A DNA stretch of 64,000 nucleotides from Escherichia coli (lineage in GTDB: Bacteria; Pseudomonadota; Gammaproteobacteria; Enterobacterales; Enterobacteriaceae), in assembly GCF_003334385.1 (NCBI RefSeq), contig NZ_QOWN01000008.1. One strand, given 5' to 3'. Position 1 is the stretch's first letter; each line of letters opens with the position of its first letter. The position numbers were made by a program, and so were the translations under genes. The notes under the pieces are model-generated. The model saw only the letters and a list, made by a program, of their open reading frames with translations, ran no database searches and was not told where the DNA came from. Positions 31,741-34,700 of this stretch are shown one piece after another.

Positions 31741-34700
31741 TTACCATTTCACCGTCATCGACAAAAACCCTGCCGTCTGGGCAAAATCATCACTCCCTTT
31801 CTGCCACGCCACGCTGCCGCGCAGGGACACTCGCTGACTGATATTGCCCGTGACTCCCACTTTTATTTCACCCCGTTGCTTCACCGCATCGTCACTGATA
31901 GTGCTGCCATCCTCTTCAATTTCCGTCGAATGGGGATCGTGATAATAATTCAGATCTAATGTTGGTATGACATGAACAGCGGTACGCCATTCGCTGTGTA
32001 AACCCAGCCGCGTCTGAATATCATCACCCTGCGATTGTGACACGCGCGCACGGTTAGCGGCGGTAAAATCATCCTGCTGCACGCCCTGATAAATCACCTG
32101 CGCCTGCGGTTCAATCACCACACCACGCCCCGGTAACCACTGATACCCCGCCTCCAGCGAGGCGATAATCCCCGACGAGTGGTAATGATCTGTGCCATCT
32201 TCTTGTTCGGAAACATCATTGCTAAACCACGCGTATTGCAGCCAGCTATCCAGCCAGGCCCCTTGCTTCTGATTACCGTGCTGAAACCAGCTTGATGTCA
32301 GCCCAACGGCATAACCGTGGTTCTGGTTATCGGCGCGAGTTCCGGTCATATTCGAGCGGCTGTCGCCCTGGTTATCGCTGTAGCCACCAACAATCCCAAG
32401 CATCCACTCGCCATCCGTGCCCCAGCGCCCGCTAAACAGATCGCCGCTAAGTTGCACCGTAGAAGTGTCTTCATGTTGAGCCAGTTGCCCCGCTGCTGTG
32501 TAATGATAATCTCCGCCGATAACACGTAAATTCAGCGTCTGACCATCGCCACCTGCGTGATCGCGTCGCTCCATCATAAACGCCTGATTTGCCGCCCGCA
32601 GGTTATTGAGATAACCGCCAACTTTGGCATTCAACACCGGCTGGTAAGCAGGCGTAGGTTCCGGGTCGGGTGTTGGATCAGGATCCGGCGTGGGATCAGG
32701 ATCGGGAGTCGGGTCTGGATCAGGTGGCGATGGCGGCGTTACTTCTTGCGATCGCAGATACCAGTCGTTGTTATCTTCCACCAGCGTGTAGTCATACGCT
32801 CCCATATTGACGTAGCCGCTGCCTGCCAGACTGAACTGCGCATTGTTTTGAAACTGCGTGGGATCAGCTGCGAAATCAACCACTTTAATGCCTGTCGATG
32901 TCGGCTCACCAATCCCTGTAATGGAGTTAACCACCACAGTTGTGTTGCCAGCAGTATTACCGTTCATCACCAATTGATCGCTTACCGAGTCATCGCCGTT
33001 TAATTCGCTATCGAGCAGTAGCGTACCGCCGCCGGTATAATCACCGTTTACCGTCAGCGTATCGCCAGCGACGCCATTTTGCAGGCTAACCGCACCGGAC
33101 GTATTGGTCAGATTGCCATTAACCGTCACGTTGGAAAGATAAGTCAGGCTGTCAGTTTCAAGGTTGGTATTAAGCTCACCTGTCAACGTCACACCATCGG
33201 TGGCATTCACCAGCGTCCCATCGCCGTTAAATAGTGAGGCATTAAGGGCGACGGAAGTATCCTGCCCGGTCAGGCGCAAAACCGTACCATCGCTGATGTC
33301 GATAGTGCCGCTGGAAATAGCATCAATTGACTGAATATCCTGATCCGCGCCAGTAACGAACGTTGCCCCATCACCAACCCACAGTGACGAAGCATAAGGA
33401 AGGATATCAGCAACATCACCTTTCAGGGTGCCTTCTTCGACACGTACCGCCGACTGCGTTGTACCGCTGGCGGTCAGCTCCAGTGTACCAGCCCCCGTTT
33501 TAGTCAATGTGCTACCCTCATCCTGATGCTGCCCGCTGCTGTCAGCCATCAGTGCGCCCCACTGCGTGTCTACCCCCGCATCAACTGCCACTTCACCGTC
33601 GGCGCGCATTTCAATATCACGTCCGTGGCCTGCCGCATCTGAACGCGTGTCAACGTCGGAGGTAATCTCCATCACGCTTTCTTGTTGCTTATCGGTAAAG
33701 ATAACCTGGCGGTTATAGTGGGTATCTCCAAGCTGCGAGTTGTCGCTCACCATCAGCGTACCGGAGGCGATTTGTGTTGTGCCCAAATAACTATTATTGT
33801 TTGCCAGACTTACCTGCCCGTCGCTCGCATCGACCACCACGTAGACGCCATCTTTCCCGTCGCCGCCGATATGCAAATTGTCGCCACCTGCAAGATCTAC
33901 CACATCCTGACTGCCGATAACCGTTCCGCTGCTGCCACTGACTTCAAGGCCATCGTTGTATGATGTGCCGCTCTGCCAGGTGGAGAAATCAGAGAGATCG
34001 AGCACACCGCCGTTTAACACGATCGACTGCGGATCGTCCTGGAGAGCGGTAAGATCTGCCGCGTCGCCTTCCAGCGAAAGCACCGCACCATCATCAACGA
34101 CTATATCGCCGGTTAGCGCCATCGACTGCGCCCCTGCCAGCACGTAGCTGCCGTTTTGCGCAATGGTGAGCTGACCAGCACCTTCGATGATGCCAGCAAA
34201 ACTGCCCTGATTAACAGTAACGTTGCCACCAGCATCGATATTTAAAGTGCCATTCTGAAAGCCCGTCAATGCGTGCACAAAAGTTTGTTGGGTCGAGCCA
34301 ACGTTTAGCTCAGCCTGATTCTGATACTGATCAATACTCCCTATCGTCAGACCGTAGCAGTCTTGCGGATCGTCCTGGCAATGCGTATCGCCGACATTCA
34401 TCAGGGAGTTGCTGCGGCCCAGGGTAACTTCACCGTTTTCAATCTGCATCTCACCAGTAAAGTCATTGTTATCTGCATTAAGTACCAGATCGCCGGAACC
34501 TGTTTTGGTGATTAACCCGGTACCAGCAATAGAGTCAACAGCTCCGTCATTCTCTGTATTGCCAATAACCAGCGTTTTTCCGTCGGCAATATCAAAGGTA
34601 ACTTCACTTAAGCCGAGATACATAAAGCCACCCGCCGCAGAGGAAGGACCATCTCCATAGCCTGCTGCGCTATTGTTCTCATCGACTAACACGCCTCCGT

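Follow-up and report, generated by a model that had tools for sequence, protein, structure and literature searches.

A dense group of GATC sites inside the coding sequence of a surface adhesin raises the question of whether the gene is controlled there, by Dam methylation or by a repeat that changes length, or whether the DNA merely reflects the peptide that it encodes. Such a group lies in the yfaL gene within a 64,000-nt stretch of Escherichia coli DNA (contig NZ_QOWN01000008.1, hereafter the window). We analyzed the anatomy of this tract, its codon composition, its methylation record and its variation among complete E. coli genomes.

According to the open reading frame list, the translation and the RefSeq annotation, the tract belongs to an autotransporter adhesin gene with the following layout.

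31741 to 35493, minus strand: yfaL/ehaC coding sequence, 1250 aa, AIDA-I-type autotransporter adhesin.
32782 to 33114, minus strand: autochaperone domain, Pfam AC_1, aa 794-904 (E = 1.2e-18), the C-terminal end of the beta-helical passenger.
32650 to 32736, minus strand: Pro-rich spacer PPSPPDPDPTPDPDPTPDPDPTPDPEPTP, aa 920-948, read from the codon table.
31762 to 32625, minus strand: translocator unit, aa 957-1244, which aligns with the AIDA-I helix and beta-barrel.

In RefSeq, the matching DNA carries the annotation "AIDA-I family autotransporter adhesin YfaL/EhaC"; it is present in 5,420 of 5,426 complete E. coli genomes. The neighborhood agrees with the K-12 map, with an 875-aa ORF at 28117 to 30744 that resembles gyrA and with glpA downstream. 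A 148-aa plus-strand ORF at 32557 to 33003, which runs antisense to yfaL, was rejected as a gene.

Besides AC_1, the Pfam scan, run on the last 752 residues of YfaL, returned an overlapping Pertactin match at aa 811-914 and the Autotransporter beta-domain PF03797 at aa 989-1228 (E = 1.2e-34). The top match among solved structures was the AIDA-I transport unit 4MEE (E = 8.8e-36), which aligned in two blocks. The first, covering aa 808-916, corresponds to the autochaperone/beta2 part of AIDA-I (4MEE residues 29-137) and ends at a WYLRSQ motif, and the second, covering aa 957-1244, corresponds to the helix and barrel. The autochaperone segment was also matched by the IcsA autochaperone structures 3ML3 and 5KE1. 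AIDA-I thus shares the units on both sides of the tract, while aa 920-948 lie outside both folded units, in the gap that the two blocks leave unaligned. Since this gap is about 40 residues long in YfaL and about 11 in AIDA-I, the Pro-rich tract is a spacer inserted between two folded units. The initial annotation had placed the tract in the linker between passenger and barrel, and this holds, with the autochaperone/pertactin-like end (aa 794-914) on one side and the beta-domain (aa 989-1228) on the other; its boundaries of 32664 to 32727 cover the core of the Pro-rich stretch but are a few codons off.

We then analyzed the repeats within the spacer, whose peptide has a PPSPP(PDPDPT)3-like pattern; aa 925-948, encoded at 32650 to 32721, read DPDPTPDPDPTPDPDPTPDPEPTP.

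32653 to 32724, minus strand: four imperfect 18-nt units (32707-32724, 32689-32706, 32671-32688 and 32653-32670), encoding PDPDPT three times and PDPEPT once, read from the codon table and Tandem Repeats Finder.
32675 to 32703, minus strand: exact 11-nt direct repeat pair GATCCTGATCC, copies at 32693-32703 and 32675-32685, 18 nt apart.
32688 to 32866, minus strand: exact 11-nt direct repeat pair TGATCCCACGC, copies at 32856-32866 and 32688-32698.

Tandem Repeats Finder reported a period of 18 for the spacer DNA (2.6 copies, 82% match), together with periods of 12, 24 and 36, and its output contained no period of 6. The longest exact direct repeat within the tract is the 11-nt GATCCTGATCC, at an offset of 18 nt. 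The tract had been described beforehand as a near-tandem 6-nt repeat, which is right only as to its rhythm: the true repeat unit is the 18-nt hexapeptide PDPDPT, in imperfect copies, and the 6-nt rhythm is that of the X-Pro dipeptide.

To compare the spacer among genomes, we used a 321-nt query centred on the tract, which matched once in each of 5,420 complete E. coli genomes. Identity to the query was at least 99% in 2,033 genomes, 95-99% in 363, 90-95% in 2,577 and 80-90% in 447. Spacer length was then read in two samples, of 40 and of 60 rows, taken at even steps down the ranked matches, as follows.

Same length as the window: 27 of 40 and 40 of 60.
+6 nt: 2 of 40 and 4 of 60.
-18 nt: 9 of 40 and 13 of 60.
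-24 nt: 1 of 40 and 2 of 60.
-168 nt, the last-ranked match: 1 of 40 and 1 of 60.

The comparison of copy number across yfaL alleles, which had been proposed as a check, therefore gave a positive result, as about one third of the genomes, estimated from these even-step samples, differ from the window in spacer length. The spacer alleles observed were -24, -18, -12, -6, 0, +6 and +18 nt, and the reading frame stays open in all variants. In 21 representatives, the QEV-to-YQPV segment measured 90, 96, 102, 108, 114, 120 or 132 nt, always a multiple of 6, and no indel was found in the sampled flanks. Indels also occur elsewhere in yfaL, where diverged alleles have a coding sequence of 3759 or 3714 nt against the 3753 nt of the window with the spacer unchanged.

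To look for recent changes, we wrote down beforehand the slippage products expected from mispaired repeats on the allele of the window and searched for them in the genomes. Together with two further deletions, the results were as follows.

+18 nt, a duplication between the two 11-mers: CFS3246 and "strain 35", whose records are equally long and which are probably one isolate; 100% match to the predicted product.
-6 nt, one GATCCT lost: six porcine ETEC genomes; 100% match to the predicted product.
The same -6 nt: deer strain 48; 99.0% of the 315-nt query, on another flank background with 7/212 and 7/195 mismatches.
+6 nt: WP2-S18-ESBL-08; 100% match to the predicted product.
-18 nt, between another pair of GATCC copies: UTME-3; no mismatch in the flanks.
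-168 nt (56 aa, in frame), between the TGATCCCACGC copies: VTB97022v; the simulated product equals 800 nt of the strain exactly.

The predicted -18 product of a slip between the two 11-mers had an exact match in no genome, and UTME-3 was the sole carrier of a -18 allele on the window background. From these results, we observed five distinct indels (-18, -6, +6, +18 and -168) on backgrounds whose flanks do not differ from the window (0/407 mismatches), all five bounded by direct repeats that contain GATCC, and three of them (+18, -6 and +6) were exactly the products predicted in advance. The GATCCTGATCC pair is the substrate of the +18 duplication, and each of its copies holds the GATCCT/GATCC tandem that gives the changes of 6 nt in either direction. 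None of the recent variants shifts the frame. They are rare, being carried by about 11 of the approximately 2,040 genomes with the window allele (about 0.5%). An identity of at least 99% over 321 nt excludes any 6-nt indel there, which applies to 2,033 genomes; among the sampled rows of this band are laboratory derivatives of K-12 as well as O157:H7 strains. The earlier suggestion of a slippage-prone length is thus borne out as far as in-frame alleles and recent events on an identical background are concerned, but the events are few, the repeats are imperfect, and the tract is not hypermutable.

We considered whether slippage is needed at all, since the common length classes look different from the recent ones. 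The common -18 class, which comprises about 22% of genomes, has the form PPDPDPDPTPDPDPTPDPIP, and the common +6 class has the form ...PDPAPDPTP; both carry several substitutions inside the spacer relative to the window. Left and right flanks are unequally diverged in strain 1585m1 (0/212 versus 14/195 mismatches) and in 2012C-4221 (1/212 versus 11/195), and CT29 has near-identical flanks with a diverged 3' end of the spacer. This unequal divergence points to putative recombination junctions near the spacer. Given their many substitutions and unequal flanks, the common classes are old alleles, and their spread by recombination, rather than repeated slippage, explains most of the variation in the population. 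Taken as a full alternative, this reading holds that most of the length diversity stems from ancient diverged alleles and not from slippage, homologous recombination with breakpoints within the spacer or close to it having shuffled the passenger and translocator modules. We regard it in that form as rather unlikely, although it is the strongest of the rivals, because it leaves unexplained both the five indels on zero-mismatch flanks and the fact that the lengths differ only by multiples of 6, at GATCC repeats. The old alleles must themselves also have arisen by indels, and recombination therefore complements the slippage explanation.

We next considered the GATC sites themselves.

32676 to 32721, no strand assigned: five GATC (Dam) sites, at 32676, 32682, 32694, 32700 and 32718, spanning 46 bp.

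The initial annotation had counted five GATCs within about 50 bp of yfaL, and we confirmed this count. The cluster is the densest group of five in the window, the next ones spanning 72 and 75 bp, and in simulations that scattered 299 GATC sites uniformly over 64 kb, 1.6% of trials held five sites within 46 bp. The spacings are 6, 12, 6 and 18 bp, with a mean of 10.5 bp. The second densest GATC cluster of the window is held by glpA.

All five GATCs are junctions between a GAT (Asp) and a CCN (Pro) codon. The spacer contains seven Asp-Pro dipeptides, of which five are written with GAT and two with GAC. Within the long ORFs of the window, Asp is encoded by GAT in 66% of cases, and in 73% when Pro comes next. 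A GATC arises wherever GAT, the Asp codon that E. coli prefers, precedes CCN, and about five are therefore expected from seven Asp-Pro dipeptides. Consistent with this, when the 29-aa peptide was randomly recoded with local codon usage, it contained 4.6 ± 1.3 GATCs, compared with the 5 observed (P for at least 5 = 0.55). Over 19 distinct spacer alleles, the share of GAT at Asp-Pro was 0.62, and the number of GATCs per allele ranged from 2 to 7, with sites toggling by synonymous GAT/GAC changes. Since the count is as expected and varies between alleles, the motif is neither enriched nor conserved but follows the peptide. These results indicate that the clustered GATCs serve no purpose in themselves and are a by-product of the repeated spelling of Asp-Pro. 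The cluster lies at codons 925-940 of 1250, 2.8 kb into the coding region and far from any promoter.

To place the five sites on a published methylome, we transferred the coordinates through the K-12 strain CJ236, in which yfaL lies at 2,340,417-2,344,169 and whose record has the same length as that of MG1655, giving an offset of 2,308,676. This offset also puts gyrA at its MG1655 position. The five linker GATCs then map to 2,341,352-2,341,394 of MG1655. In the nanopore methylome of this strain, median methylation is 97%, and 177 GATCs are listed as hypo- or hemimethylated, that is, below 60% on at least one strand (PMC10653831). No entry of this list falls between 2,315,184 and 2,383,623. With no linker site among the 177, the cluster is therefore ordinarily methylated in K-12, as taken from a publication on one strain in one growth condition and at a threshold of 60%. 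The tract had been called an unusual Dam-methylation cluster, and that description survives only as a count: the sites are predicted by the codons, are not conserved and are not under-methylated in K-12, and the check on methylation status that had been suggested, made against the published MG1655 list, gave no under-methylated site near yfaL.

Nor is the cluster new. A coding-region GATC cluster has been defined as at least 4 sites with a mean spacing below 18 bp, and yfaL (JW2227) is among the 76 E. coli "GATC genes" obtained with this definition, as is glpA (Riva et al. 2004, PMC493266). The yfaL tract satisfies the definition with its 5 sites and mean spacing of 10.5 bp. The "GATC regulatory network" is a hypothesis in which transcription is blocked at such clusters when they are hemimethylated in the cold (Henaut 1996; Riva et al. 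2004, PMC493266). Applied to yfaL, a functional Dam/SeqA element would consist of clustered, transiently hemimethylated GATCs that bind SeqA or stiffen the DNA and so block transcription after replication or on cold shock. Apart from the published definition and list, arguments for it come from SeqA, whose binding in vivo tracks GATC density with a preference for spacings of about 10 or 20 bp (PMC2912659); the yfaL cluster has spacings of 12 and 18 bp. Since SeqA follows GATC density, transient occupancy of the cluster after replication is plausible, as it would be at any GATC-dense stretch; our literature search found no paper tying SeqA binding to yfaL. In addition, yfaL and ycgV are named as biofilm genes whose GATCs were differentially methylated after laboratory evolution over 2,400 generations, the site not being given (PMC10653831).

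Against these points stand the number of GATCs, which equals the codon-usage expectation, the synonymous GAT/GAC toggling that leaves 2 to 7 sites per allele, the absence of any reported under-methylated site there in MG1655, and the position of the tract 2.8 kb inside the coding sequence with the promoter distant. Moreover, the table of the original study flags yfaL as not dam-sensitive and its cluster as absent in Salmonella (Riva et al. 2004, PMC493266). The yfaL tract thus fits the published definition of such clusters, but it is fully accounted for by the Asp-Pro peptide and is not conserved. A relative of YfaL in which GATC methylation does matter is agn43 (Ag43), a paralogous E. coli autotransporter with Dam/OxyR phase variation (PMC3764049). 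Although the two proteins belong to the same family, agn43 has its GATCs in the promoter, within an OxyR site, where they are shielded from methylation in a heritable manner, whereas those of yfaL lie deep inside the coding sequence, are not known to belong to a binding site and have no reported under-methylation. We compared yfaL with Dam switches of the agn43/pap type on three features, namely a regulator site at the promoter, stable under-methylation in the published MG1655 list and conservation of GATCs between alleles, and found none of them. A functional Dam/SeqA element at this tract is therefore very improbable.

We also considered whether the tract is a contingency locus, that is, a hypermutable simple sequence in which repeat length changes at high frequency and selection uses the quick variation of an adhesin. 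Contingency loci of Neisseria and Haemophilus consist of many perfect copies, switch at high rates and in most cases alter the reading frame or promoter spacing. The likeness lies in slipped-strand length change at short tandem repeats in a surface-protein gene, and in yfaL the lengths do vary by repeat steps, porcine ETEC and deer strain 48 share one -6 allele despite their different flanks, and five distinct events fall on one identical haplotype. However, the repeats of yfaL are few and imperfect, at 2.6 copies with 82% match and a longest exact repeat of 11 nt; 2,033 genomes are free of any 6-nt indel in the 321-nt segment while recent variants occur in only about 11; and every change is in frame, hence there is no on/off switching. 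Of the three marks of such loci that we looked for, a perfect run of repeats, frequent differences among close isolates and switching of expression, none was found. The population data thus largely refute this hypothesis, and we give it almost no weight.

Equally remote is a functional Asp-Pro stalk, either as a roadblock of GATCs, SeqA and hemimethylation that couples the gene to replication or cold, or as an acid-labile site at which Asp-Pro cleavage sheds the passenger at gastric pH, with a length tuned by slippage. The backing for the roadblock and shedding versions consists of the sequence composition itself.

Taken together, an Asp-Pro codon origin of the GATCs, combined with a tolerant PDPDPT spacer that undergoes occasional in-frame slippage, very probably explains the tract as a whole. 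The spacer, four imperfect hexapeptides, links the autochaperone domain that closes the passenger with the helix threading the beta-barrel, and its most likely role is that of an extended, unstructured stalk on the cell surface. With GATCC recurring every 6 nt and the 11-mer every 18 nt, both in codon register, the DNA contains short direct repeats, on which replication slippage or unequal exchange may occasionally add or remove 6 or 18 nt. We infer slippage as the mechanism from the position of the breakpoints at direct repeats. MutS-dependent repair does not act on loops as large as 6 or 18 nt. As the spacer would tolerate a change of length, such alleles may survive, and a few may have become common; the length changes are presumably neutral.

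The closest parallel to the YfaL spacer is provided by the proline-rich repeat regions R1 and R2 of Bordetella pertactin. Both proteins are autotransporters with a beta-helical passenger, the Pertactin Pfam match of YfaL lies just upstream of the tract, and in both, tandem Pro-rich peptide units occur in alleles that differ in repeat number. In YfaL, these features take the form of three PDPDPT units and one PDPEPT and of in-frame alleles that differ by whole or partial units. The pertactin repeat motifs are GGxxP and PQP. They differ from the YfaL tract in peptide, and also in place, since they lie in loops of the passenger, whereas in YfaL an Asp-Pro-Thr spacer follows the autochaperone domain. 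The pertactin repeats are described as loosely structured, and their number varies slowly and not within one infection (PMC8931430). Their variation has been discussed in relation to vaccine-driven immunity, whereas the YfaL spacer is not known to be under immune or functional selection.

The gene, the type of linker and the GATC cluster were already known, the cluster having been on record for two decades, and our literature search on yfaL together with proline-rich linkers found nothing specific; the allele series is a small descriptive addition. The tract is a modest, indel-prone, low-complexity linker and neither a contingency locus nor a methylation switch. For annotation, this means that length variants of yfaL are not to be read as phase variation. 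The tract also serves as a worked example of a striking cluster of methylation sites that arises purely from codon bias acting on a dipeptide repeat. YfaL serves as a surface-display scaffold. The natural spacers, from about 8 aa shorter to 6 aa longer than that of the window, and the 56-aa deletion in addition, suggest that the linker tolerates changes of length. For the family, the recent events illustrate that low-complexity autotransporter linkers gain in-frame indels at short direct repeats.

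GATC is over-represented across the whole window, with 299 sites observed against 239 ± 13 expected from dinucleotide-preserving shuffles, and 0 of 100 such shuffles attained the observed number. Besides the cluster in the spacer of yfaL, which encodes the Pro-rich linker of this autotransporter, we noted a further cluster:

44600-44705, inside a 542-aa ORF at 43971..45599 on the plus strand: GATC cluster ranking second in density within the window, with 6 sites in 106 bp and 4 sites in 44 bp.

From the N-terminal start of its product, we take this ORF to be glpA. The yfaL cluster lies in a peptide repeat, whereas that of glpA does not, so that an explanation by codons is not obvious for glpA. 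Like yfaL, glpA (JW2235) is included in the published list of E. coli genes with GATC clusters (Riva 2004, PMC493266).

The opposite strand of yfaL also carries a predicted reading frame:

32557-33003, plus strand: predicted ORF of 148 aa, starting at a GTG codon and lying antisense to the part of yfaL that encodes the spacer and the autochaperone domain.

Two alleles from other genomes carry changes that affect the spacer. In the sampled O157:H7 allele (FRIK2455), codon 936 in the third hexapeptide is changed from CCG to CAG (Pro to Gln), giving the peptide PDPDPTQDPDPT, in which the X-Pro rhythm is interrupted and the length is unchanged. In strain VTB97022v (NZ_CP178670.1), we found an exact in-frame deletion of 168 nt at window 32688-32866, bounded by two 11-nt direct repeats, TGATCCCACGC. 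The 56 aa lost include half of the spacer and the final strands of the autochaperone domain; the gene is still annotated as intact, with a product of 1194 aa.

The yfaL gene of strain CT29 (NZ_CP032073.1) is annotated as a frameshifted pseudogene; the frameshift was absent from the 521 nt examined around the spacer. The sole yfaL match counted as plasmid-borne is at 77233-77553 of a 148-kb record, NZ_CP051662.1 (strain 1162T7). This record could be a piece of the chromosome or a replicon assigned in error, in which case yfaL would not be plasmid-borne.

Over window 32440-32960, comparison of three loci (L004, L018 and L008) revealed discordant divergence from the window to the left and right of the spacer. 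Mismatches in the left and right flanks were 0/212 and 14/195 for strain 1585m1, and 1/212 and 11/195 for 2012C-4221; in CT29 (L008), the 3' end of the spacer has diverged and both flanks are near-identical to the window. This discordance in the aligned sequences suggests that the passenger and translocator modules of yfaL meet at recombination junctions located in the spacer or close to it.
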